From: an uncultured Candidatus Saccharibacteria bacterium
GTDB lineage: Bacteria; Patescibacteriota; Saccharimonadia; Saccharimonadales; Saccharimonadaceae
Direction: 5' to 3'
Assembly: GCA_963456275.1 (NCBI GenBank)
Contig: CAUOLJ010000003.1
Location: forward strand, 201 to 64,200
Length of the DNA stretch: 64,000 nt
Part shown: piece after piece, positions 1 through 12,351 of the stretch
Numbering within the stretch: position 1 is the stretch's first letter
How the letters are laid out: every line of letters begins with the position of its first letter
Program-made: the position numbers and the translations under genes
The notes under the pieces: generated by a model
Told to the model about the DNA's origin: nothing
The model's database searches: none
The model's input: the letters and a program-made list of their open reading frames with translations, nothing else

Positions 1-390
1 AAAAAATATGACATAGGCCCGCCAGATGCTTTGGAGATTCTTGAACTGATTAATTATGCTCGTAGTAAAGAAAATCTGAAGCCGTTAAAAATGTACGAGC
101 CGCTTAACCGAACAGCGCAGTGGATGGCGAATGACATGAAAGAGAATAATTATTTTAGCCATTATAAACCAGGCACAACTATTCCGCACGGACTGCTTAA
201 AGCGAGGGCTGTCTGCAACGCGCCAGCCGAGAATCTGGTGCAAACTTCGCCACCAGATCTGCACACTAGCCGCGTGGCATTCAACGCCTGGATGCAATCG
301 CCGCCGCACAGGCAATCCATCATGTCGAGCACCTACACGCTAACCGGATTTGGCATTGCCGGCAATAAGATTGTGGAGCATTTTTGTTGA
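1..390 (+). CDS. CAP/SCP-domain protein, C-terminal part (begins before window)
   Basis: Frame open from base 1; motifs LINxxR, AQxxAxDM..YFSH, AENL, WMxSPxHR, GFGI. Confidence 0.85.
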   Translation, partial: KKYDIGPPDALEILELINYARSKENLKPLKMYEPLNRTAQWMANDMKENNYFSHYKPGTTIPHGLLKARAVCNAPAENLVQTSPPDLHTSRVAFNAWMQSPPHRQSIMSSTYTLTGFGIAGNKIVEHFC

Positions 391-556
391 GTGTGTGTTT
401 AAACTGCCCGTCTTATAGCCATTCTCGCCGCCATTGGTATTCTATGAAAACTGCGCGGATAAATCTGATGTAGGGAGGCGATATCCTGCTAATACCTCAT
501 GATTTAAGTATGAACAAGATGGGTGGTTTGGATAAATCGGATGAAGGCTAAATACT

Positions 557-2017
557 TTACAATATAACATTACTCCACTCAAACATACTCCTGCCTAAGT
601 CTTCTCTATTAGTGATTCCAGCGCGAGAAAATACGTGCAGCAAATTTTGATTACTACATGACATAAATAAGTCGTCATAGTTACGAGAAATATTATGCCA
701 TATCCTGTCCTTAGTTTCTAAATAATCACTATTGATAATCTTGCATATCATACATAGAAAATCTTTATCCTTAAGTTTTTCTATAAACTCTGGTATATAT
801 CGTTCCCATGAAGGACCTAGTAGAATTCCTAATAACCACGGAAATTTTCCAAACATTAGATACTGTATGATATTGCCATCAAGGTATGTCTGCAGGAGGC
901 TTGGATTGTCAGCAAAACGCTCTTGCAGGAGTTGAGTTGTCGGGAGTGTAAGGTTCGCATCTTTTAATTTTTTATAGTGATCTAATACATGTTCAGGATA
1001 GTTTATTGTCGTAATATTTTCCAGATCTATATTATTAGCGATCGGGAGGAGACTACTTGGATTAATTAGTCTTATTTTTGCTATTGTTGGCAGTATGGTC
1101 CATGACTTGCTATCAACGATAGAGCCAACGATTAAGGATATTATTTCGTTGATAATCAAAGAATAGTACTCGATTGAAATTTCATGAGATATACTAGTAT
1201 TTTTAGAAATTTCAGCGTAGTGATCTAGAATAATTTGAATTGATTTGTATGCCTGTTCTAGTATATCCGCTCTTTCGTATTCAGCGGCCTTTTCAAGAAT
1301 TTCATGTAGCTCAATAGCTATGTCTTTAGTAGCACAATACGCATTATATACATTTGCTGTGTATTCCTCCGCTGCTACGCCTTCGTTAAATACACCAGGT
1401 GATAAGTCTAAGTATTGCTCATAGGTGTTTGCAAAATAATCTCTTATAGTTTTCTTTGCTGGCTTTCCGTTTTCAATTGCGCGAATAAGACTATCTTTAT
1501 AGGATTGAGTTTTGTTAATTTTTTCTTCGTTTGCCAACGAATCCAGGTGTGCTACGATAGCCTCCTTTAGGCTTCTCTTTAGTAATATAGCTTTATTATC
1601 TTTTTTTATAGAAAACCCTATCGTTCTTTGATGGGCAATATCAAATGGCAGTTCTTCCATTCTACCCAGATCAATATTTGCAACTTGGATAACCTTCTCC
1701 TCTGTGTGCTTACCAATTGCATATCCAAGTTCAAACATCACGTTTTGATTAACGATACCTTTTCCAGACTTGCCTCTGTCAATAATGGATACGTCTGCAA
1801 GAAAAATGCCGCAATTATTAATCTTTTCCTTGATGGTGGCTCCTATGTTAACGGCTCCTACCGCACCTTTCGTATCCTTATCTAATTCGACTCTTGGTGA
1901 CTCTTCTAATGCAGGAGTGTCGGAGATTTCTTTAATAACATCTAGCAGGGTTTTTTCGATATGACGTCGTGTTTTCGGGTGGTTAGACTGCCATGAATAA
2001 AATACTTTTCTTTTCAT
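557..2017 (-). CDS. TIR-like / nucleoside-deoxyribosyltransferase-like nucleotide-binding domain protein, probable defence gene
   Basis: N-terminal KVFYSWQS...IFLADVS...NQNVMFELGYAIG...LPFDI motifs; long divergent C-terminus; AT-rich. Confidence 0.7.
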   Translation of the reverse strand: MKRKVFYSWQSNHPKTRRHIEKTLLDVIKEISDTPALEESPRVELDKDTKGAVGAVNIGATIKEKINNCGIFLADVSIIDRGKSGKGIVNQNVMFELGYAIGKHTEEKVIQVANIDLGRMEELPFDIAHQRTIGFSIKKDNKAILLKRSLKEAIVAHLDSLANEEKINKTQSYKDSLIRAIENGKPAKKTIRDYFANTYEQYLDLSPGVFNEGVAAEEYTANVYNAYCATKDIAIELHEILEKAAEYERADILEQAYKSIQIILDHYAEISKNTSISHEISIEYYSLIINEIISLIVGSIVDSKSWTILPTIAKIRLINPSSLLPIANNIDLENITTINYPEHVLDHYKKLKDANLTLPTTQLLQERFADNPSLLQTYLDGNIIQYLMFGKFPWLLGILLGPSWERYIPEFIEKLKDKDFLCMICKIINSDYLETKDRIWHNISRNYDDLFMSCSNQNLLHVFSRAGITNREDLGRSMFEWSNVIL

Positions 2018-2084
2018 AATATTCCTCTAGTTTAGTATATTACATTTCAGGTTTGAATAAGGGTTGCAAAATTAGTACATTAAT

Positions 2085-2111
2085 AAAACAAAAAGACGCA
2101 CCAATAGCGTC
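2085..2111 (-). terminator. Probable intrinsic terminator downstream of the RT operon
   Basis: Minus strand GACGC-TATTGGT-GCGTC followed by TTTTGTTTT. Confidence 0.5.
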
Positions 2112-2120
2112 CTTATCCTA

Positions 2121-2185
2121 ATTGGTGGTAATTTACGCCAAAGCTCGAACCCATTTCGAGCTTAAAAGCTGAGCCATGTAGGCTC
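2121..2185 (+). repeat. 65-bp inverted repeat, left copy (partner 5273-5337)
   Basis: Reverse complement matches 5273-5337 at 58/65 positions by hand alignment. Confidence 0.9.
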
Positions 2186-2392
2186 AGCCCCAACGCCTGT
2201 GCCAGCAAAGCTGGCATGCGTCCAGTCAGAAAAACCGCTCCTTGAATTATCTTTTTGAAATTTCCCCGCCTTATTTTTCTCTTTAGTTGAAAGGGTCGGA
2301 TTTTTTCTGTCGGTCCGCCCACCGAAATCGGTGGAGGCGTTGTGGCTTCGCTCGGGCGGCAGAACCGCCACATCTTTGCAAGCAAGGCGTTC

Positions 2393-3394
2393 CTAACGCT
2401 CAACATATTCTTTATAGCGCAAAGTCGATTTTCGTTTTTTACGTATCGTGGTATTTCTCCTTCGGGACTCCTTATACCTATGCGTCAAGTTGGCTAACTT
2501 CCATCGAGTTTTCGTACCGAGTGTTAATGAGTTTCTATTCATCTGTAATCCCAGATGCTCAAAACCTCGCTTTCCTTGATAAATTCCATCTATGTCGTAT
2601 TCGTCGCCGGAATGGTATATGATTTTGGTTTTTGCGTCATTGAGCGGCAGCTTCTGATTTTTGTCGCTCTCAAGAATAGTCTTGATTTTTGGATAAAGCT
2701 TCATCATATCCTCTTTGGTGATTCCACTTGCCGTAATAGCAATATCATCAACGTAAATAGCAATACGAGGATCTTTGCCTTGTAGCTCCTTTTTCACAAG
2801 TCGCTCGAGCCTGAGGAATGTATCGAGATTACACCATACCGCCAGGCGAGACGAAGTTGAAAACCCGCGGGCGATTGTCTTATAAGTTCCGGGGTTATCT
2901 TTCGCACCAATTGGCACACAACAAAGGTCGGCCAGCAATCTTGCACCTCTTTGCCCACATTGACCCTTGGCTAAAAAGAAGCTATAGACACGTTCATATT
3001 TAATTTGCTCAAAAAACCGTGAAACATCCAGCTTGAGGATAATTCGCTTCCGCTTTACTCCGAGCAGGTGTGTTACTGCGACTTTATGGTTCCGTCCGCT
3101 CACGCCTCCGAATACGAACGTTGGAATAAGTGAGTCATGGGGAGCTAAAACTTTTACATTAATAAGCTTGAGTAATTTTCCCAGGTCGGTGCGCGATGCG
3201 TCGCGCACCCATTTACCTTTTTCGGGTTGCGATTGTGTGGGATGGTCAGTCCAGTAGTTGTCGTAGTTCATCTTAACGTCGCTTACCAGTCTTGCCATAT
3301 CCTCAACTGAATCTCGCTTATCACTTAAACGTTTCGCAAGCTCTCGCTTGCTCCGAATGGCGATTTTAGGATAGTTATGTTGGTTATTTTTCAT
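2393..3394 (-). CDS. Reverse transcriptase, retron-like (333 aa)
   Basis: LKLDVSRFF (RT3), ARGFSTSS (RT4-like), IYVDDIAIT (catalytic YxDD), HLGL; RT-only size, no maturase or endonuclease domain. Confidence 0.92.
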   Translation of the reverse strand: MKNNQHNYPKIAIRSKRELAKRLSDKRDSVEDMARLVSDVKMNYDNYWTDHPTQSQPEKGKWVRDASRTDLGKLLKLINVKVLAPHDSLIPTFVFGGVSGRNHKVAVTHLLGVKRKRIILKLDVSRFFEQIKYERVYSFFLAKGQCGQRGARLLADLCCVPIGAKDNPGTYKTIARGFSTSSRLAVWCNLDTFLRLERLVKKELQGKDPRIAIYVDDIAITASGITKEDMMKLYPKIKTILESDKNQKLPLNDAKTKIIYHSGDEYDIDGIYQGKRGFEHLGLQMNRNSLTLGTKTRWKLANLTHRYKESRRRNTTIRKKRKSTLRYKEYVER

Positions 3395-3710
3395 TGCGCC
3401 TTAATAACTTTGCTCGTTCTTTGATGAGATGATTTTGTAACTTGGTACCCCAACCTATAAATTGTTTTTCAATAACAGATAGTTTTTTACCGTTTTCGAC
3501 ATTCTCTCCATACAAAAAAGGAGTTATCGAGGCCGGGTGTACTTTTAAGCCATCAGCAAGCTTCAAAATTAGCTTTTTTGACACCTCTTTTTGTCCACTT
3601 TCGACCATAGCAATCAAAACCGGCGACACATCTATGGCCTTAGCAAGCTCGGTCTGCGTTAAACCAGCTTCGTTGCGTATCTTTTTGATTAGTTCTGGGA
3701 ATGAATACAT
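3384..3710 (-). CDS. XRE/Cro-family HTH protein, overlapping the RT start
   Basis: IKKIRNEAGLTQTELAKAIDVSPVLIAMVESG; 11-nt overlap with RT. Confidence 0.92.
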   Translation of the reverse strand: MYSFPELIKKIRNEAGLTQTELAKAIDVSPVLIAMVESGQKEVSKKLILKLADGLKVHPASITPFLYGENVENGKKLSVIEKQFIGWGTKLQNHLIKERAKLLRRNEK

Positions 3711-3729
3711 TGTTTTACCTTCATAACGA

Positions 3730-3897
3730 CTACAAGCCGGAGGTAATTTGACTTAAATCATGTCGCGGATAATTCTGACTATTTGTAAAATAATCTTCAT
3801 TATCCGCAAGACCTTGGTAAAAGTCTTCATTATTACCCTCCGGCTTGCGATACGGATGCCACAGTTTAGTTGGTAAAGAAATAAGTTGCTTTTCCAT
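3730..3897 (-). CDS. Unannotated 55-aa ORF (MEKQLISLPTKLWHPY...ITSGL) enclosing the peptide ORF in another frame
   Basis: AAAGGAAGG Shine-Dalgarno at 3910-3902, ATG 3897, TAG 3732-3730. Confidence 0.5.
   Translation of the reverse strand: MEKQLISLPTKLWHPYRKPEGNNEDFYQGLADNEDYFTNSQNYPRHDLSQITSGL
3753..3830 (-). CDS. Unannotated 25-aa cationic amphipathic peptide MKTFTKVLRIMKIILQIVRIIRDMI, candidate toxin
   Basis: GGAGG SD at 3841-3837, ATG 3830, TAA 3755-3753; SD paired with CCTCC at 3743-3739. Confidence 0.65.
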   Translation of the reverse strand: MKTFTKVLRIMKIILQIVRIIRDMI

Positions 3898-3914
3898 ATG
3901 GCCTTCCTTTCTAA

Positions 3915-4217
3915 CAAGCTAGATTAAAATATTTAGTTAGTAAAAGTTGGACAATCTTACTCTCGGGGCTATCGTTTCGATTGGTATAGACATCCGGTAA
4001 TACCCTAGTCGGCAAGATATAAATCTCGTAGCCCCGATTTGGATAGTCCCTGTGCTGGAAGCATTGCTTCAAGCCACGTAACATGTACAACGCGCGGAAT
4101 ACCGACCCGTGGTACAAGTCCTCACTCTGAATGGAATGGGTCAAATGCGTTTTATAGCATCTCAATCTATCGATTTGACAGCTTTATCGCTAAACTGATT
4201 TTTAACTTACTAGCCTG
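3915..4217 (-). ncRNA. Candidate RT-associated ncRNA (msr/msd-like)
   Basis: Ends pair (CAGGCUAG 4217-4210 with CUAGCUUG 3922-3915, plus UUAAAA/UUUUAA and UUUAG/CUAAA); internal stems 3963-3971/4029-4037, 4058-4070, 4140-4146/4173-4179. Confidence 0.6.
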
Positions 4218-4222
4218 CTACC

Positions 4223-4252
4223 AGTATATACAAAACGTATAAGTCCTGTCAA
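4223..4252 (-). promoter_or_regulatory. Sigma70 promoter of the RT operon
   Basis: TTGACA (4252-4247), 18-nt spacer, TATACT (4228-4223); predicted start about 4217. Confidence 0.7.
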
Positions 4253-4267
4253 GACTTTGGTTCACCC

Positions 4268-5157
4268 AACTAACCTGGAACAGCCATAGCAAACCGTAGG
4301 AATGCTATTGGGCTGGCGAACAGTTCTGGCTGGTTAGCTCTTGCCATCCATTCTCGGCAAAGAGAGTCTAGCTGTCTCGTCAGGATTCTTCCTCCGAACA
4401 GCTTCCGAGCATGCCGCTTCGTCACGCTCCAGATATTCTCTCCTTGGTTGGTACCGGCAAAGCACTCTTTGCTATGATTCCAGCTCTCATGGGCGTAGCC
4501 AAGTAGTTCTAGCTCGTCATACGCCCACCATTTGTCGCTTGCCACTAGGCTGCCTGCTACGATGTAGTCCTGAACAAATTGTTCAAGCGGTTGTCTATCC
4601 CGGCTGTCGGTAATGCGTAGGGCAATGCGCCCAGTCGCAGTGTCTTTAGCGCCAACTACGATGCGCTGAGGCTGTTTGGATCGCCTCTTGCCAAAGTAGC
4701 TTTCATCTACTTGCACCACACCCTCCAATATAGCGGTGAGCTTGCTGCTGTCAGGCAGTTGCTTGCGAAATCGGGCAAACCAGCGCCGAACAGTAGTATA
4801 GCTTACGCCAGCTAATAGATATGCCTGCCGTTTCTGTTGAGCGTTTTGTTTGCCAACAGTAGAGCAGGATGAACAGCTGCCGAGAACTTAGCTTCATGCC
4901 GTATAGCCAGCTAGCCTGGTAGCTGGTTGGACGATGCTTCTTGCGACAGAACTTGCACCATAGATATCTGTTGCAATAGCTCTCCTGAAGACTTGTGCGG
5001 CAGCGAGGACACAATACCTCATCGCCGAAAGCCAATTTGTTAAGGATCTGCCAATATTTCTTGTTACTGGCAAACTTTGGTATGGTAGACATTAGGAACA
5101 CCTCCTTTTACTTAGTTGCTATTCACTCCTAAGTTTACGGGATGTTCTGGTTTAGTT
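4268..5157 (-). mobile_element. IS1595-family insertion sequence
   Basis: Zn-ribbon plus ISXO2-type DDE transposase; imperfect terminal inverted repeats 4268-4285 and 5140-5157 (14/18). Confidence 0.8.
4270..5092 (-). pseudogene. IS1595 transposase, frameshifted
   Basis: CPRC..CKFC in the 5' frame, VQVDESYFG..SDKWWAY..H in the 3' frame; frames joined by removing a TGCC duplication at 4822-4829. Confidence 0.85.
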
Positions 5158-5272
5158 TAATGGACCTGCGAGACTTAGCGTTGCATTTATTCATGATGAT
5201 ATCTACGACGATAAGATATTCCAGTCTTGGCGGTAGACCTTGGTGGTAAAGTAGTTTTAGTTTGAGAGCGCG

Positions 5273-5337
5273 GAGCCTGTACAGCTCAGCTTTTACGCTT
5301 GAAATGGGTTCGAGCTTTGGCGTATATTACCACCAAT
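5273..5337 (-). repeat. 65-bp inverted repeat, right copy (partner 2121-2185)
   Basis: 58/65 identity to the reverse complement of 2121-2185. Confidence 0.9.
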
Positions 5338-5629
5338 AGAACTAAAACGGTCGCCCATTTGGGCGACGAAATATCAGCAATTTTGTATTGGTGCGGAATT
5401 ACAGAACCTACTCAAACTTTTTGAATACATTATGGATTACCCTGGTCCAGCTCCAGCAATAAAAAGACGTACAGCGCAGCATAAACAAACGCTATCAATT
5501 ATTTATTAGTAGCAATCTGTTGTGATATCAGAAGATAGTTTACAGGGGGTTGTTACTCTTTAATACGTAGAAATGTCATTCCGCTATGTAAATGGTAAAT
5601 TTTTGGGTGCAAAGTTGCCAATACTTTTT

Positions 5630-5800
5630 TTAAGCGTGCCAATAATGATTAGGGCTAATTGAGTAGTATAGAATTGTAAAGAAACCAACGCCAACCAGGC
5701 ATAGTAAGATGTGTTTTATAATACTATGTCCCTTTTGCTCTCGTACATAGTTAAAATTTTCTTGTTTTGTGTTTCCTGATGATTGTTGATGGTTGTTCAT
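5630..5800 (-). CDS. Unannotated 56-aa small membrane protein (MNNHQQSSG...HILLCLVGVGFFTILYYSISPNHYWHA)
   Basis: GGAGG SD, ATG 5800, TAA 5632-5630; one hydrophobic segment. Confidence 0.7.
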   Translation of the reverse strand: MNNHQQSSGNTKQENFNYVREQKGHSIIKHILLCLVGVGFFTILYYSISPNHYWHA

Positions 5801-5823
5801 AATACCTCCATTATTTAATTATT

Positions 5824-5941
5824 AAAAAAGGACAGCCACTGCTGGCTGTCTAGACCCACAACGAGAAGTTTTATCCCTATTGCTTTTAGCAAATGGCTGC
5901 CCATTTTCGGGATAAAATGAGCCCTGTTGTGAATCTAGACA
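5824..5941 (-). ncRNA. Structured leader or sRNA with overlapping intrinsic terminator
   Basis: Nested stems 5847-5854/5934-5941, 5857-5862/5926-5931, 5869-5877/5909-5917, 5880-5884/5888-5892; terminator 5831-5850 plus T6; extended -10 TGCTATAAT at 5956-5948. Confidence 0.6.
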
Positions 5942-6361
5942 TTATCTATTATAGCATTTTGATGTAAAATTTGAATTTCTGATATAATAGGTAATGTAAT
6001 TAATAAAATAACCGCATTCTAGTGTGGCTACATAGCGGAGACGGACCGCGTAAAAAACGGGTAGCACATTTACACATTAGAATAAGCATACGAGAACAGC
6101 TCGGTAAAAATGGGGCTTTTAGCGGACTAACTGAAGTAACTGCTTCAAGGAGTCTCGTATGTCCCCTTCATCTAACCGAAAAGTTTTCATCGATGACAGT
6201 ATATTAAAGTTGCTCAATGTATTGTTTAAATATAGCGACAAGCACAATGAAAAAATAAACACCACATCAAATAGACAGCGCTACATAATCAATAGAGGAG
6301 TAAAAATCCTTTTATAGTTCCCTATAGCCTAAATTAGCTCTAACTATAGGTAGGGGCTATA

Positions 6362-8026
6362 ATGGGAATTATGCAGAATAATAATGATTCTATAAGTGTA
6401 AAATTACTATTAGATAAACTTACGGGCGGTGGTCCTGAAAGCAGTGAGGACTCGCTTAAGCCCGTACGCTATGGGTTGTACGCCCGTAAGTCTACTACAA
6501 GCGAAGATAGACAGGCTTCATCAATAGAAGACCAGATAAAGGAGTGCGTAGATAAGGTTATTACACCAAACGGCTTAAATGTCAAAAAGATATACAAGGA
6601 AAGCTTTTCTGCTAAAATTGCAGATATACGTGATGAATTTAATAAACTTATAGATGATATTGAAAACGGAAGGATAGACGGCTTGATAGCTTGGCATCCT
6701 GACCGCCTATCACGAAATATGAAAGAGGCGGGTGTTATTATCGACCTGGTGGATAGGGGCTTAATTAAGGACCTAAGATTTGCAACATTTACATTTGAAA
6801 ATAATCCGGCGGGTAAAATGCTGCTCGGCATTACGTTTGTGATGGCTAAACAATATTCTGAACATCTCTCCGAATCGGTGGACCGTGGCAATAAAAGAGC
6901 CATAGAAGACGCTGAGTTTATCGGTAAGTTCAAGCATGGCTACATACTAGACTCAAATCGTTTTTTCCAACCTGACCCGAAGAATTTTACAAAGGTTAAA
7001 CATATATTTGAATTAGCTCTAGACGGTAAATCCCAGAAAGACATTAGAGAATGGATTAATAGACAAAATTATACTGTTCAAAAGCGTGCAGGAGGTCCTT
7101 ACCAAAATCATGATTGGTCCAAAGATGATATTTCAAAGACTCTTAAAGACCCCTTTTATGCTGGTATTTTAAAATGGGGCAAGCATTACAAAAATTTATT
7201 AGAAGAGTATGATTTTCAGAGTGCAATTACTGTTGATGAATATCTAAAAATAAATAAGATTGATAGCTTAGATTCCTCTAAAGTTTATGCTATCAACAAG
7301 CCAAAAGGTGGTGAAATATTTGCGAATTTATTTCGGGGTGGAGTCGTTTGTGGGGCTTGCAATGAGCCCATGACTTCAATGGTTACAAATAAGCGGAATA
7401 AGGTAACGGGCGAAAAATACGATTATAGATATTACTATAAGTGTGAAAACGGACACTGTAATTTCAACGGAAAATCGATTCGCGCAAAAAGTATTATTGA
7501 TACGGCTGAGGCATTTTTTAATAGTTACTTATTCATTAATAAAAGTAATTATTTGGTAATAAAAGAAAGTGCTGAAAAATCTATAAAATGCAAAGGGGCT
7601 AATCTTGCTAGCGAGATAGCTAGCTTAAAACGAAAAATAGCACTTAAAAAGCAACATTATGAACAGACAAAGGCTCTCATACTAGAGAATCCAGAACTAA
7701 AGGACTATTACAATCTTGGCGAATTTCTTGATGAACAAAAGGAATTAGAACAACGTTATGAACTGGTGGCTAATCAAAAACGCTTACTAAAGGATTCGTT
7801 GATTACATTTGATGAATATCTCAAACTTTTTAAATCCCTCCCTGTTATTTTTGAAAAACTTGATGATATGAATGAGTTGAACCAACTACTAAAAATATTC
7901 TTCTCTAACTTCATAATTGAACCCATTAAAAAAGACACTTTTAAGGGGTCAAAAGTATCCTATAAACTAAATGAACCCTGGAAAGGGTTCATTGAATCAA
8001 ATGATTTCGTTTGTGGTGCGGGTTAG
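6362..8026 (+). CDS. Large serine recombinase (resolvase, recombinase and Zn-ribbon domains)
   Basis: YARKST catalytic Ser, DRLSRN, CGAC...YYKC; stop codon lies inside the tRNA 3' end. Confidence 0.95.
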   Translation: MGIMQNNNDSISVKLLLDKLTGGGPESSEDSLKPVRYGLYARKSTTSEDRQASSIEDQIKECVDKVITPNGLNVKKIYKESFSAKIADIRDEFNKLIDDIENGRIDGLIAWHPDRLSRNMKEAGVIIDLVDRGLIKDLRFATFTFENNPAGKMLLGITFVMAKQYSEHLSESVDRGNKRAIEDAEFIGKFKHGYILDSNRFFQPDPKNFTKVKHIFELALDGKSQKDIREWINRQNYTVQKRAGGPYQNHDWSKDDISKTLKDPFYAGILKWGKHYKNLLEEYDFQSAITVDEYLKINKIDSLDSSKVYAINKPKGGEIFANLFRGGVVCGACNEPMTSMVTNKRNKVTGEKYDYRYYYKCENGHCNFNGKSIRAKSIIDTAEAFFNSYLFINKSNYLVIKESAEKSIKCKGANLASEIASLKRKIALKKQHYEQTKALILENPELKDYYNLGEFLDEQKELEQRYELVANQKRLLKDSLITFDEYLKLFKSLPVIFEKLDDMNELNQLLKIFFSNFIIEPIKKDTFKGSKVSYKLNEPWKGFIESNDFVCGAG

Positions 8027-8089
8027 GAGACTCTAACTCCTGGCCTCTTCCATGGCAAGGAAGCGCTCTAACAACTGAGCTAAACCCGC
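8014..8089 (-). tRNA. tRNA-Gly(GCC)
   Basis: 76-nt cloverleaf GCGGGTTTAGCTCAG...CTTCC TTGCCAT GGAAG...CCCGCACCA. Confidence 0.95.
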
Positions 8090-8222
8090 ATAATGTTCGC
8101 TGCGTATCTCGCTGGCAAATCGTCATAATTTTGCGAACTCGCCTATGATGTGCGATACAACAGCCAATCTTTCGATTACATAGTAAGTATAGCAAACAAA
8201 ACCGCTCATTTCAATAATCTTC

Positions 8223-9014
8223 TCACCAATTTCTCTTCGTATGATCTGGCGTGGCGTCTTTGTAATCTTCTAGGTGCTGGTTTCTTTCCTGGGATTTACG
8301 CTGTTCATTGTAGGCGTCGATGAATCGCTTGTCCAGCTCTTTGAGTTTGCTATCGGTGCTGCCAGTGTCAACTTTTTCTTTATCGTCAGGTTTGGTGACT
8401 GAAATATCTTGGTCGCCGTTTCTGAGCTGTTTTATCTGCGCCAACTTTTGTCGGATTCGCTGCTCAATAACGATTGCCGTTTTGCCGTCGTCATTGTTCG
8501 CGTCGACTGTTTGGCTGGCAAATTGCACGCCGCAACTATCCTCGCCGTCGTGCAGTACGGCGTTTGCTTCGTCGTAGCGGATGATTGCTCGGTCGTAGCG
8601 TTTTTCGCTGGCGAGGGCGTCTGCTTGCGCTTCAATTGATAGCGCCAAGTTGATGCGGACAGGGCATTCGTGAGTTTTCGGCGCTTTTTGTAAGGCTTGG
8701 CGGAATTGTTTTTCTGCCGAGTCGTAGCGGGCTTGCTTATATAGAGCATTCCCGTCGTTAAAAAATACTTTATAAGATTCAAACAAATTCACGGCATAAA
8801 CTGGCGATAAGCGGAAAGAAGCCTGGCTGTTGTCGCCGTCTTTATAGGCGGTATGCGCTGCTAGCGACAGCAGAGGAAAACTCGTCAATTTAATAGCAAT
8901 CAGCAGAATCACCGCGCAAGCAGGGAATGAATAACGGAGCAGTTTCCGGCGTTTTTCTCGGCGGATTTTTTCAAAATCTAGTTTTTTCAGGTCAAATGGA
9001 CGATTCTTGTTCAC
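8223..9014 (-). CDS. TPR-containing membrane protein (Bat-like operon)
   Basis: TM segment, FNDGNALY..A...F..AL TPR pattern. Confidence 0.7.
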   Translation of the reverse strand: MNKNRPFDLKKLDFEKIRREKRRKLLRYSFPACAVILLIAIKLTSFPLLSLAAHTAYKDGDNSQASFRLSPVYAVNLFESYKVFFNDGNALYKQARYDSAEKQFRQALQKAPKTHECPVRINLALSIEAQADALASEKRYDRAIIRYDEANAVLHDGEDSCGVQFASQTVDANNDDGKTAIVIEQRIRQKLAQIKQLRNGDQDISVTKPDDKEKVDTGSTDSKLKELDKRFIDAYNEQRKSQERNQHLEDYKDATPDHTKRNW

Positions 9015-10024
9015 GGCTGTTTCTCCTCTGGCGGTGTTATGTTTTGCAGTTTGCGCAAAGGCAAATAGACGGTTCTGATTTCAAAGGCCAGCAGAATAGC
9101 AGCCGCAAATATTGCTATCCAATATATATCGTTGTAGCCGTCGAACGAGCGGCTGCTATTGACAGCTTTGTCGACGGAACCGTTCTTGACGACAGTTTCA
9201 ATAGAATCTGGAGTTTGCCGGTGTGTGTACGGCAGTCCTGTTTGACTGGCAATGTTTTTAAGGTTTGTCTCGTCGATTTTTGATACGGCATATTTCAAAT
9301 CTGGCCCGCGCAAATAAAAACCGTCAAAGCCGTCGCTGTAACTTGGCGTTTTTATTTTTCCGCCGTCGGTAGTGCCGTAACCCATGATTGCGCCGCCGCC
9401 CAGCAGGGGCTTTAAGCTGGCGAATGACTTTGGCGAGGCGTCGCTGGTTTGTTCGCCGTCGCCCAGGTAAAATAGCAGCGAGGTGCGCTCGGGATTTTTA
9501 TGCTTGGTGCGAGTAATCTCCGAGGCGATGGTGTCAATCGGTGTATCAATTGAGCTGCCCATGGCATAGCTTTCGCTGATGATATTTACCGTGTCAACTG
9601 CCGATTCAAACATCCTGACGTCTGTCGATAACGGCGAATCAACGAAAGCTTTATTGTTGAAAGTTATTAGGCTAAATCGCGCGCCAACCAGCTTTTTGGC
9701 AATTTCTTTGGCGTCGCGGCGCATGCCGTTGATTCGCGGCTGGCCGTTATCATAATCCTCGGCAGCAGAACTCATCGTTGTGTCCATGACAACATAAACA
9801 TCGACTAGCGGCGCGCCCCATTCTTTCACTTCGCCAGGAATAGCTGGGCGAAAACAAGCGGTAATGATAAGCAAGACAATACAGAACCGCCGCAGCCACG
9901 CTCGCCGGTTAGATATTGGTTTGGATAAAATCCTCCAGCCGGTAAAAATTGCAGCAACTACCAGAATTATCAGCAGCAGATACCATGGCAAAATCGGTTG
10001 CATTATCATATGCGAAGCCTCCAA
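9011..10024 (-). CDS. VWA-domain membrane protein
   Basis: DTTMSS MIDAS-like motif, GDGE. Confidence 0.85.
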   Translation of the reverse strand: MEASHMIMQPILPWYLLLIILVVAAIFTGWRILSKPISNRRAWLRRFCIVLLIITACFRPAIPGEVKEWGAPLVDVYVVMDTTMSSAAEDYDNGQPRINGMRRDAKEIAKKLVGARFSLITFNNKAFVDSPLSTDVRMFESAVDTVNIISESYAMGSSIDTPIDTIASEITRTKHKNPERTSLLFYLGDGEQTSDASPKSFASLKPLLGGGAIMGYGTTDGGKIKTPSYSDGFDGFYLRGPDLKYAVSKIDETNLKNIASQTGLPYTHRQTPDSIETVVKNGSVDKAVNSSRSFDGYNDIYWIAIFAAAILLAFEIRTVYLPLRKLQNITPPEEKQP

Positions 10025-11016
10025 TCAATAATAATGAGGGAAATTATGATGATAAGCATGCCGTACAGTAATAATTGTGGCTGATCAGTGCGAGTAACGC
10101 GCGGCGTGCCTTTGAAGCGGGAGGCGTCTTGGGCGGTAATTTTTTGGACAATGTTTGGAATTGTGTTTTTGTCGTGCAGTGCGTAGTAATCGCCGCTCGT
10201 CGCCAGCATGGTTCGCTTCAATTCTGCCGCTTCGGCTTCGCGATTTTTATTACTATTCGGGTAAATGCCGTATACGCGGATATCTTTTTGTTTGGCTAAC
10301 TCTGCCGCTTCGGGTAGGGAAATTATCGGCGTGCCAGCTAGTTGATTGTCGGTTCCTAAAATGATACTTCGGGAGCGTTTGTTGTCCAATTTATCGAAGC
10401 GGCCGATGCAACTTGCTAGCCCGTCGCCGATCAGCGATGAGCCTTGCCCATTCGAGACTACCGTACCAGATAAAATATCGAAATATTCCAGCGTTCCGGG
10501 TGGCGTCAGCGCTTTTTCGATTAGCGCTAATTTGCTGTCAATGAGGCTGGCGTCGTCTGTCAAAGGAAATATCACTGCCGGCGAGCGGTCAAACAATACT
10601 AAACCGAGTCGTTCGCCGTCAAATTTTCGTGCCAATGTGCGGTAAGTTTTAATAATCTCTACATCATATTCATACATCGACCGCGATACGTCAAGGCACA
10701 GCACAATGTCGCGATTTTTCACCTCGGGAGAAACGACGGCTACCGACGAAGGGCGGCCAGTGAGAATAATCATCATGACTAGCAGGAGCGCGTGCAGTCC
10801 CAGTACAACCGCCAATAGTTTTTTGTACCGCTTGACCTGCTGAATATAGAGCGGGAAAGCGCGCAGCCGCGAGGTATTAGCGATAGGGAGTTTTTGCCTA
10901 GGCGCGTCATGGCGTTTCAATCGGCTGTATCGGCGGAGTATAATCGGCGCGGCAAACCACAGCAGGGCGATAATTATAATTAACGCCAGCGACAATTGCC
11001 AAAAAACTAATTCCAT
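10006..11016 (-). CDS. VWA-domain membrane protein (BatA-like)
   Basis: DIVLCLDVSRSM MIDAS, IGDGL, TDN. Confidence 0.88.
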   Translation of the reverse strand: MELVFWQLSLALIIIIALLWFAAPIILRRYSRLKRHDAPRQKLPIANTSRLRAFPLYIQQVKRYKKLLAVVLGLHALLLVMMIILTGRPSSVAVVSPEVKNRDIVLCLDVSRSMYEYDVEIIKTYRTLARKFDGERLGLVLFDRSPAVIFPLTDDASLIDSKLALIEKALTPPGTLEYFDILSGTVVSNGQGSSLIGDGLASCIGRFDKLDNKRSRSIILGTDNQLAGTPIISLPEAAELAKQKDIRVYGIYPNSNKNREAEAAELKRTMLATSGDYYALHDKNTIPNIVQKITAQDASRFKGTPRVTRTDQPQLLLYGMLIIIISLIIIDWRLRI

Positions 11017-11486
11017 GTCGCTACCGTCTTTCTGGCTAGTGCCGCTGCCTCGGCAACGCTGCCTTGTTCGACCGCGGTAAATTCAGGAATATAGAATTGT
11101 TTGATGGCGGCCGCCAATGTTTTATAGCGAGTCTTTTCTAGATCTCGCAGCGTCAACGTGTCAACGCGGTGGCCGTTTATCTCGACAACGAACATGCGAA
11201 GAATATGGCTTAATTTCTGGTGGGCTTTACGCGAGGATAATTTTCCGGCAGTGTGATTTTGCTCGATTTCATCGATTAACTGCTGGTATTTCTGTTTCAA
11301 ATCAGTCAAATCTGGCGGCGTGTATGGTTTTGGTTTGAGCGTAGCCAGGCTGCGGTGAGAGCGGCGGCGAGTAGAGTAAAACACAAATCCGTACCATAAA
11401 ATAATCGCGCTTAAAAGCAAGCAGCCGATAACCAGCCACAGCGGGTCATAATCTACCCATTCGCGAAGCTCAGTGCCAGCGCGCAT
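11007..11486 (-). CDS. Membrane protein of the MoxR/VWA operon
   Basis: One TM helix; overlaps neighbours. Confidence 0.7.
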   Translation of the reverse strand: MRAGTELREWVDYDPLWLVIGCLLLSAIILWYGFVFYSTRRRSHRSLATLKPKPYTPPDLTDLKQKYQQLIDEIEQNHTAGKLSSRKAHQKLSHILRMFVVEINGHRVDTLTLRDLEKTRYKTLAAAIKQFYIPEFTAVEQGSVAEAAALARKTVATWN

Positions 11487-12351
11487 GCTTTTGCCTTTCT
11501 AATAGTGAAAAGAAACTGCCGACGACGTCCTCTTCTCCGGAAATTCGCTCGCTGATGACGCCCAAACGCTCCAGGGCAGTGGAATATTCGCGGTAGTACG
11601 ATTGCTGTCTGCGGTCGAAATCGTCTTGCAGGCGCGTTTGTTTGCGAATAAAATAAGGCAGCTCGGCCAAATCGTCAATATCGTAAAAATCGCGGTTTTC
11701 GTCAAGTCCTGAAATATCATTGATTGTGATCCATAATATCTCGTGCTGGGCGCGCAGCCGCCGGATAATATGCTGGTGCTCGCTGGTCAGTTCATCGTCA
11801 TTGGCAACCACCACCAGCATCATCTTGCGCCGTAAATTGCGTGCAATATATTCAAGCTGATTAACAATATTACTCGGCGCTGCTGCTAGTTGAGTGCTCT
11901 TTTCAATGTGCCGCAGTAGCTGCTCGATATGCCGATCATCGCCTTTGAAAGGAATATAGGTGTTATTCTTGGCGTCGCCAGACACCAGTCCGATCAAATC
12001 GCCGTGCCGTAATACGATGTAGCCCAAGACCCCGGCAGCCATGATACTGATGTCGCGCTTATTGCTGCCAGTTTTACCGGTCGCTGCCATGTGGCGGCCA
12101 GTGTCGACTACTAGTAAAATATTATGTTTGCGGATTGCTTGGTAGCGCCGGATTCGAATACCGCTGCTGCGAGCAGTCGCTTTCCAGTCGATATCTTTTA
12201 CATCGTCGCCAGGAATGTATTCGCGCAAGTCGTCAAAATCAAGGCTGCGACCCTTAAATACCGAGCCGTATTGACCGTCCAGCAAACTCCGCACCTTTTC
12301 ATGGGCGTAGAGATCCATCTTGGCTTTGACTTTGGCGAAGAGACTTGGCAT
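11470..12351 (-). CDS. DUF58-family protein
   Basis: GRSLDFDDLREYIPGDDVKDIDWKATAR; start placed at MPSLF. Confidence 0.9.
   Translation of the reverse strand: MPSLFAKVKAKMDLYAHEKVRSLLDGQYGSVFKGRSLDFDDLREYIPGDDVKDIDWKATARSSGIRIRRYQAIRKHNILLVVDTGRHMAATGKTGSNKRDISIMAAGVLGYIVLRHGDLIGLVSGDAKNNTYIPFKGDDRHIEQLLRHIEKSTQLAAAPSNIVNQLEYIARNLRRKMMLVVVANDDELTSEHQHIIRRLRAQHEILWITINDISGLDENRDFYDIDDLAELPYFIRKQTRLQDDFDRRQQSYYREYSTALERLGVISERISGEEDVVGSFFSLLERQKHARWH

Follow-up and report, generated by a model that had tools for sequence, protein, structure and literature searches.

The stretch of Saccharibacterial DNA analysed here (the window, 64,000 nucleotides) contains a locus that, judged from its sequence, is a Type VI retron (hybrid RNA-HTH-RT), a putative anti-phage system, of Saccharibacteria-like Patescibacteria, and in which a 25-codon gene is enclosed within a covarying RNA hairpin and nested inside a longer, overlapping reading frame that is selectively kept open. 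In the explanation that we favour overall, and that we consider probable, the short gene (ORF B) would code for a toxin consisting of a single helix, its Shine-Dalgarno sequence (SD) would be locked in the closing stem of the hairpin, the outer frame (ORF A) would act as an opener of this stem, and the whole would be under msDNA/HTH/RT-dependent control.

All components of the system are coded on the minus strand. A sigma-70-like promoter (TTGACA-18-TATACT, 4252-4223; 11/12 matches in a consensus scan), whose -35 and -10 boxes are kept among relatives (alignment A2), is expected to start the retron transcript at about position 4216. It is followed by about 310 nt with no credible ORF, corresponding to a putative msr-msd-like structured non-coding domain of the hybrid RNA (3905-4216), as indicated by folds, conserved stems and contigs from RNA libraries. 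Then come ORF A (3897-3730; 55 aa, P0002), with its SD AAGGAAGG at 3909-3902 and a UAG stop at 3732-3730, and the hairpin arm of the hybrid RNA (3727-3856, from the fold and RNAalifold), which encloses ORF B (3830-3753; 25 aa, P0001). The locus is completed by a gene coding for a Cro/C1-type HTH protein of 108 aa (3384-3710; HTH_3, 2e-14; PADLOC HTH_VI, 1.4e-12) and, overlapping it by 11 nt, a retron RT gene of 333 aa (2393-3394; RVT_1, 8.3e-12; PADLOC RT_VI, 3.5e-23, 80.3 bits, the runner-up being RT_IV at 1.7e-14). We assign the locus to Type VI because PADLOC names these two proteins RT_VI and HTH_VI, i.e. by profile match, and the HTH gene has the published characteristics of the type, with a product of 91-110 aa coded directly upstream of the RT gene or overlapping it (Mestre et al., 2020, PMC7736814). 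According to the same survey, a small protein (SP) gene precedes the HTH gene in a minority of annotated Type VI systems (Mestre et al., 2020, PMC7736814), and the HTH protein is described as an antitoxin or repressor in published ones. The promoter, folds, stems and contigs together are consistent with a hybrid RNA, that is, a transcript joining a structured msr-msd to a toxin gene with sequestered ribosome-binding site and start. An Rfam scan of positions 1-12000 at E <= 1 gave a single match, to a tRNA, and no family for the hybrid RNA. At 761,837 bases in 23 contigs, the source genome is small.

We compared the window with 13 loci from genomes and 80 from metagenomes (87 found, 80 kept), making 94 sequences in all. 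The genome relatives are Patescibacteria-type MAGs, except for one labelled Gammaproteobacteria and two unlabelled, and a comparison of the window RT with plasmids matched eight Aeromonas plasmids. The HTH gene could be located in 87 of the 94 sequences, and 68 loci were retained, having at least 170 nt free of N upstream of this gene, after removal of those identical over the last 170 nt. Loci from E. coli, Aeromonas, Staphylococcus, Enterococcus, Acinetobacter and Bacteroides served for further comparison.

ORF B had been proposed in an earlier note on this DNA as an amphipathic toxic peptide, and its translation is as given there (MKTFTKVLRIMKIILQIVRIIRDMI, ending at TAA 3755-3753). It is present in all 68 loci, on the strand of the ncRNA and the HTH-RT genes and invariably between them, and begins with ATG in 66, GTG in one (L019) and TTG in another (L029). 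The 62 distinct peptides measure 21-39 aa when counted from the first ATG, most often 22 (15 peptides), 24 (11) or 23 (9), and share a gapless 17-residue core with the consensus ..K.LRI.RIIL.IIRIL.DL... They are composed of isoleucine and leucine for 47% and of arginine and lysine for 20%, with a median net charge of +4 and a hydrophobic moment of 0.62, against 0.28 in shuffles, which agrees with the cationic amphipathic helix described before. A charged residue occurs every 3-4 positions and the longest uncharged run has a median of 6, so the peptide would be an amphipathic cationic helix with no plain transmembrane segment. Genes of this length fall below the usual limit of gene callers. A 15-nt direct repeat, AUAAUGAAGA(C/U)U(U/A)UU (3789-3833, minus strand), makes the ORF B start region recur in frame at Met11, where translation might also initiate and yield a peptide of 15 aa; the first copy of this repeat is absent in relatives with 22-aa peptides.

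The hairpin around ORF B is as had been claimed from the letters alone. The 5' arm of its closing stem (3832-3847), which contains the SD (GGAGGG, 3841-3836, ending 5 nt ahead of the ATG), pairs with one bulged G with the 3' arm (3733-3747), which contains the anti-SD CCUCC (3743-3739) and starts 5 nt past the TAA; 11 nt of the two arms form a perfect inverted repeat (3733-3743/3837-3847). The second stem within the gene (3807-3799 with 3773-3765) is also recovered by both folding and inverted-repeat search, as part of an extended inner stem-loop (3765-3807) that is a 20-nt inverted repeat at 80% (3765-3784/3788-3807). The segment 3860-3725 (136 nt) folds with this pairing at an MFE of -51.8 kcal/mol, a value that none of 200 dinucleotide shuffles attains (mean -27.2, sd 3.79; z -6.49).

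The same closing stem is found throughout the family. When the 30 nt preceding the ORF B start were paired with the 32 nt following its stop, the duplex had a median of -21.4 kcal/mol, with z < -2 in 63 of the 68 loci. Three of the five exceptions arose from the use of an upstream ATG and are resolved by the start-proximal one (-15 to -24 kcal/mol), and the last two (L038 and L090) retain 12-pair stems with z about -1.5. The position of the stem is equally constant: in all 63 loci with z < -2 the 3' arm begins between -3 and +4 nt from the end of the ORF B stop codon, at -3, i.e. with the stop codon itself, in 37 and at -2 to +4 in the remaining 26. In 51 of 68 loci an SD-like stretch (duplex <= -6 kcal/mol) precedes the start by 3-11 nt, always within the 5' arm, while SD-like sequence is weak in the other 17. 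The arms change in concert. Among 50 distinct arm pairs anchored at the end of the 3' arm, 9.28 of 10 positions are paired within a locus and 7.11 between loci, and each of the 10 positions shows at least two standard pair types (for example AU 35/GC 11, or GC 27/CG 15). RNAalifold on 14 close relatives likewise detects both-sided changes at four pairs of the closing stem.

Such a very stable and covarying structure might suggest that the hairpin acts as RNA only, either as part of the reverse-transcription template or as an arm bound by RT or HTH, with neither ORF translated. Retron msd regions are long hairpins, and the inner stem-loop does explain part of what is conserved: in the window it encodes a near-palindromic R-I-M-K-I-I-L-Q-I-V-R-I-I-R, and in another example the inner hairpin GCGGAUAAUC...GAUUAUCCGC reads R-I-I-L-Q-I-I-R. 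Part of the peptide conservation is thus RNA conservation, because the hairpin constrains the same nucleotides. However, we find this reading very unlikely. The 51-nt core was compared pairwise over 65 distinct sequences. The first, second and third codon positions of frame B differ at rates of 0.51, 0.25 and 0.62, and at a mean nucleotide identity of 54% the amino-acid identity amounts to 0.48 in frame B but to 0.21 and 0.25 in the two alternative frames. This three-base periodicity shows a substitution pattern that a stem cannot produce and that marks frame B, from its sequence, as protein-coding. Moreover, start and stop are kept in 68/68 loci, changes in core length come in whole codons, the third frame is closed in all 68, and the msd is better matched by another hairpin, which lies upstream of the one enclosing ORF B and varies in length.

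ORF A, which was absent from the earlier note, starts with ATG in a frame other than that of ORF B and spans the whole hairpin. An in-frame upstream ATG is available in 66 of 68 loci, and the frame is open across the entire ORF B in 64 of 68, compared with 17.7 expected when synonymous codons of ORF B are resampled with the usage of each locus; the third frame is open over ORF B in none. Among 37 representatives below 75% identity ORF A is still open in 34. The effect is visible at single sites, as third-position T is found at 7 of 209 places where it would create a stop in frame A and at 296 of 1108 elsewhere in ORF B, against 657 of 2243 and 1600 of 4545 for the corresponding T in the HTH and RT genes of the same loci. 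The end of the frame is constrained as well. In the 64 loci its stop (TAG in 52, TAA in 10, TGA in 2) lies directly past the 3' arm, ending 11, 14, 17, 20 or 23 nt beyond the ORF B stop (45, 11, 2, 3 and 3 loci, respectively; all 2 mod 3) and 4-38 nt ahead of the HTH start, and coupling of ORF A and HTH synthesis would be a further possibility.

The size and place of ORF A raise the question of whether it is itself the SP toxin, with the 25-aa frame as a by-product. It matches the described SP of Retron-Vpa2 in length (55 aa), occupies the SP position, has the stronger SD in the window, is kept open, and has been called in public gene predictions (nine clusters, unnamed and without Pfam domain). 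Against this, its amino acids do not appear to be under selection: identity in the overlap with ORF B is 0.21, the least variable of its own codon positions there is the third and the most variable the first, no periodicity exists over the 14 codons before the stem (0.50/0.47/0.49 in 47 distinct of 51 anchored loci), and no hydrophobic helix is encoded. In addition, four of the 68 loci (L029, L081, L085 and L090) have an early break in the frame but retain ORF B, and in them a shorter upstream ORF alone crosses the 5' arm; in L085 and L090 the usual stop triplet is no longer a stop. We therefore hold it highly improbable that the product of ORF A is the toxin. A programmed +1 frameshift from ORF A into ORF B was also considered and rejected, since ORF B has its own start in 68/68 loci and usually an SD as well, ORF A continues without a stop far past any shift site, and inspection of the junction revealed no slippery or stop motif.

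A frame that is kept open, with a fixed stop and a free sequence, indicates that it is the act of translating ORF A that matters, and suggests that the switch works in part through translation itself. We propose, by analogy with mok, that ORF A may provide a second route to opening the ORF B stem. Its translation is nevertheless doubtful in most relatives, because a good SD is found in only 21 of 66 loci, with a strong one in the subclade of the window itself. Folds around the SD and AUG of ORF A in 13 loci are weak (-3 to -16 kcal/mol) and inconsistent. A bolder formulation, which we put forward tentatively and would rate at somewhat below even, is that of a two-frame toxin cassette, in which the annotated "protein" of 45-73 aa would be a sequence-free opener ORF and the true effector the nested, unannotated peptide of 21-39 aa. 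If this were true, public annotation would name the wrong gene throughout the clade, toxin output would be gated twice, at the start of the outer ORF and then by the SD/anti-SD stem, other Type VI retrons for which no SP is listed may hide similar mini-toxins, and SP mutational data from other systems would have to be re-examined for nested frames.

Taken together, the favoured explanation would run as follows. A single transcript from the promoter at 4252-4223 would contain first the msr-msd-like RNA and then the hairpin with the 25-codon gene. In the resting RNA, pairing of the ORF B SD with the anti-SD at or just past the stop of the same gene would allow the toxin to be made very slowly. 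Ribosomes translating ORF A would unwind both arms of the hairpin, and on reaching the ORF A stop they would cover the anti-SD and thereby expose the ORF B SD and AUG, following the logic of mok/hok. Firing would be decided at the ORF A start by msDNA/HTH/RT-dependent control, if the analogy with Retron-Vpa2 holds, and the HTH protein may additionally bind the peptide as in Retron-Sen3.

The last point may also be taken further, to a control that is post-translational as in Retron-Sen3: the peptide would be constitutive and neutralised by binding to HTH, and the hairpin would serve RNA stability or as a scaffold for RT, HTH and RNA. Such control has been published for Retron-Sen3 (10.64898/2026.04.27.721009), and it could coexist with the explanation that we favour. 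A predicted complex of the L020 HTH protein with its own 31-aa peptide lends it weak support, scoring 0.44 (median of three) against 0.00 for the best of three controls, with runs agreeing in at least 95% of contacts, a partner pLDDT of at least 75, and alignments for both chains. The mark for such predictions is reached by 116 of 157 solved complexes and by 2 of 215 mismatched pairs (counts that hold roughly, for own alignments), and at <=0.60 by 18 of the 157 and by both passing mismatches, so that a weak pass of this kind is by calibration more often wrong than right unless the pairing was likely beforehand. An SD placed in a stem that covaries over 50 arm variants and starts at the stop codon is moreover hard to account for without an effect on initiation. 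We regard the Sen3-like alternative as possible but doubtful.

In the earlier note, the fold-back sequestration of the SD had been taken as typical of type I toxin mRNAs. The lock itself is upheld in that the SD lies within a covarying stem, and it matches, by analogy, a mechanism already in print for Type VI retrons, being of the kind published for Retron-Vpa2; the locus, however, is no type I toxin-antitoxin. An independent hok/sok-like module that merely adjoins the retron would account for the small hydrophobic peptide, the masking of its SD by fold-back and the overlapping leader-like ORF, three features that are typical of hok/mok, and which here may denote a likeness of working and not membership. 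Yet in 68/68 loci ORF B is flanked by the ncRNA and HTH-RT, shares their strand and follows the retron promoter, and a charged residue every 3-4 positions is unlike a membrane-spanning type I toxin. A consensus scan, which is a weak test, revealed no promoter-like site on the plus strand facing ORF A or ORF B from which an antisense antitoxin could arise, and the sole plus-strand site (3948-3975, 9/12) points away. We find an independent module of this sort scarcely credible.

Concerning the RNA upstream of the hairpin, the 556-nt leader folds with a z of -5.82, and its non-coding domain displays conserved stems, a middle hairpin of variable length, and long-range pairing of its 5' and 3' parts as a closure, with compensatory pairs in stems such as columns 334-343/408-417 of alignment A2; the boundaries of this domain and the assignment of msr and msd are provisional. 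The most conserved 8-10-mer of the leader, the motif UAUUACCGGA at 3990-4003 (minus strand; 26-32 of 63 loci), lies within this same covarying stem and is perhaps a region of RT recognition or priming. We observed neither consistent complementarity, by which msDNA might open the ORF B stem, nor direct repeats or conserved repeated k-mers between the ncRNA and the hairpin, only scattered matches of 8-10 nt at chance rate.

Two metatranscriptome runs of one study each yielded one contig of about 300 nt, extending from 4205 or 4200 to 3904 or 3903, i.e. from a little downstream of the predicted transcription start as far as the ORF A SD, with no HTH or RT gene sequence, an absence that carries no information. 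A further contig of 258 nt (3991-3733), from a run whose RNA type is guessed, ends at the base of the hairpin. These contigs derive from relatives about 96% identical, in libraries that may contain DNA, and in the clear RNA runs the ncRNA and the hairpin never occur on one contig; they hint, weakly, at an abundant leader RNA with discrete ends. The ends at 3904/3903 fall within the ORF A SD, possibly a processing site that divides the ncRNA from the coding part.

An IS1595-family (ISXO2-like) transposase (4270-5101, minus strand), split into ORFs of 116 and 152 aa and broken in L015 too, ends about 20 nt from the retron promoter. A large serine recombinase of 554 aa (6362-8089; Resolvase, Recombinase and zinc ribbon) overlaps at its end a tRNA gene on the opposite strand (8017-8089), and recombinase and tRNA likely mark the border of an integrated element bearing the retron. 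Just downstream of the retron, a protein of 486 aa (557-2017, minus strand) has a weak TIR-like match at its N-terminus (Pfam CAP12-PCTIR_TIR, E 6.1e-5, 23.5 bits, below the cut-off of 24.7; PADLOC PDC-S35, 1.3e-5). We take its gene to be separate from the retron because it is present only in the nearest relatives L015 and L025, and probably a distinct defence gene of the same island. Neither this 486-aa ORF nor one of 97 aa, both downstream of the RT gene, was accepted as part of the system, because they occur only in the nearest relatives L015, L017 and L025 and in fragments, and not across the family.

Among known systems, the closest in organisation is Retron-Vpa2 of Vibrio parahaemolyticus, in which a toxic SP of 55 aa, coded in a hybrid RNA, is translationally repressed and derepressed by msDNA, as reported from experiments (Zhang et al., 10.1101/2025.10.22.683967). 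Its hybrid RNA of about 470-490 nt comprises msr-msd and SP, with ribosome-binding site and start hidden in stems (10.1101/2025.10.22.683967). The locus described here shares the order ncRNA-SP-HTH-RT, with ORF B as the candidate SP gene, a structured transcript with both template RNA and putative toxin gene, a ribosome-binding site and start enclosed in stems, and a helical peptide comparable with the hydrophobic C-terminal helix of the Vpa2 toxin. Unlike the Vpa2 SP as described, which is coded in one frame, the peptide is of 21-39 aa (mode 22), consists of the helix alone and is nested in a second ORF, and a single hairpin is closed by an SD/anti-SD stem that starts at the stop codon of the peptide gene. 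The 7-nt direct repeat proposed by Zhang et al. for an msDNA riboregulator was not found between ncRNA and hairpin.

Retron-Sen3 of Salmonella, a Type VI system of the cl2075 lineage, has an SP of 79 aa that is reported to be constitutive and neutralised post-translationally by HTH (Garcia-Rodriguez et al., 10.64898/2026.04.27.721009). It resembles the present locus in having a small gene in a conserved RNA frame, an inverted-repeat 3' arm past the stop of this gene, an amphipathic helix and an HTH partner, and differs in that the helix is C-terminal in an SP much longer than the 21-39 aa seen here, and that no significant covariation is described for its IR1-IR2 stem, whereas the stem here covaries strongly. 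Published SPs measure 51-79 aa. By analogy, ORF B may represent the small-protein toxin of a Type VI retron cut down to its helix. It is a conserved small ORF at the SP position in 68/68 loci, and shorter than these SPs; a profile of the peptides compared with SPs gave E 0.35 for E. coli and 0.073 for Aeromonas, neither significant, so that homology to the SP helix is argued from position and character.

Further parallels come from the more distant loci. The E. coli P2-prophage retrons (L096 and L097) have an annotated SP of 51 aa at the same place ahead of HTH-RT, and plasmid retrons of Acinetobacter (L100) and Staphylococcus (L098) have ORFs of 51 and 47 aa there. In these four, a polar N-terminal half is followed by a helix rich in W, K, R, I and L (for example ...IRLLDL...), all in one frame with the other frames closed, and ORF B looks like this helix alone, though without significant similarity to it. 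The ORFs of the S. aureus (L098, 720-864) and A. baumannii (L100, 645-801) plasmids are unannotated and lie directly 5' of HTH-RT. About three quarters of Type VI retrons are listed without an SP according to the Sen3 preprint (10.64898/2026.04.27.721009), and the plasmid ORFs suggest that such systems often have one missed by annotation. On an Aeromonas salmonicida plasmid (L094, 1954-2460), an SP-like polar stretch and a W/K-rich helix are in frame with HTH, without an intervening stop, and annotated as one HTH regulator of 165 aa, which may be a toxin-antitoxin fusion of natural origin or reflect a wrongly placed start. No convincing SP-like ORF was seen in Enterococcus (L099) or Bacteroides (L101). 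The nested frame was seen in none of the five inspected loci outside the Patescibacteria clade that have an SP-like ORF or fusion. The main texts of the two preprints, whose supplements might bear on the point, make no mention of frames that overlap around the SP, and our literature search found no publication combining retron, Patescibacteria and Type VI.

Outside retrons, hok/mok/sok of plasmid R1 and the lysis gene of MS2 combine a small toxic peptide, a start masked by RNA, and a requirement for ribosomes translating an overlapping frame. By comparison with hok/mok/sok, no antisense RNA antitoxin was seen here, and the retron RT/HTH/RNA complex may take its place as the proposed control; the peptide, unlike Hok or the MS2 lysis peptide, is amphipathic and cationic, with no plain membrane-spanning segment. 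The kind of mechanism is thus known, and what is new is the minimal, hairpin-enclosed putative toxin with its conserved outer frame. In Type VI retrons reverse-transcribed DNA turns the toxin on, whereas in other retrons it holds it off, and how RNA hides and releases the toxin gene is an open point in both preprints of 2025-2026. The clade would provide the simplest version so far, with one helix and one stem opposing SD and anti-SD, and its roughly 50 naturally occurring compensatory variants of the stem could serve as a mutational series. It also illustrates that an effector can escape gene callers, and would extend tractable retron biology to the ultra-small bacteria of the CPR.
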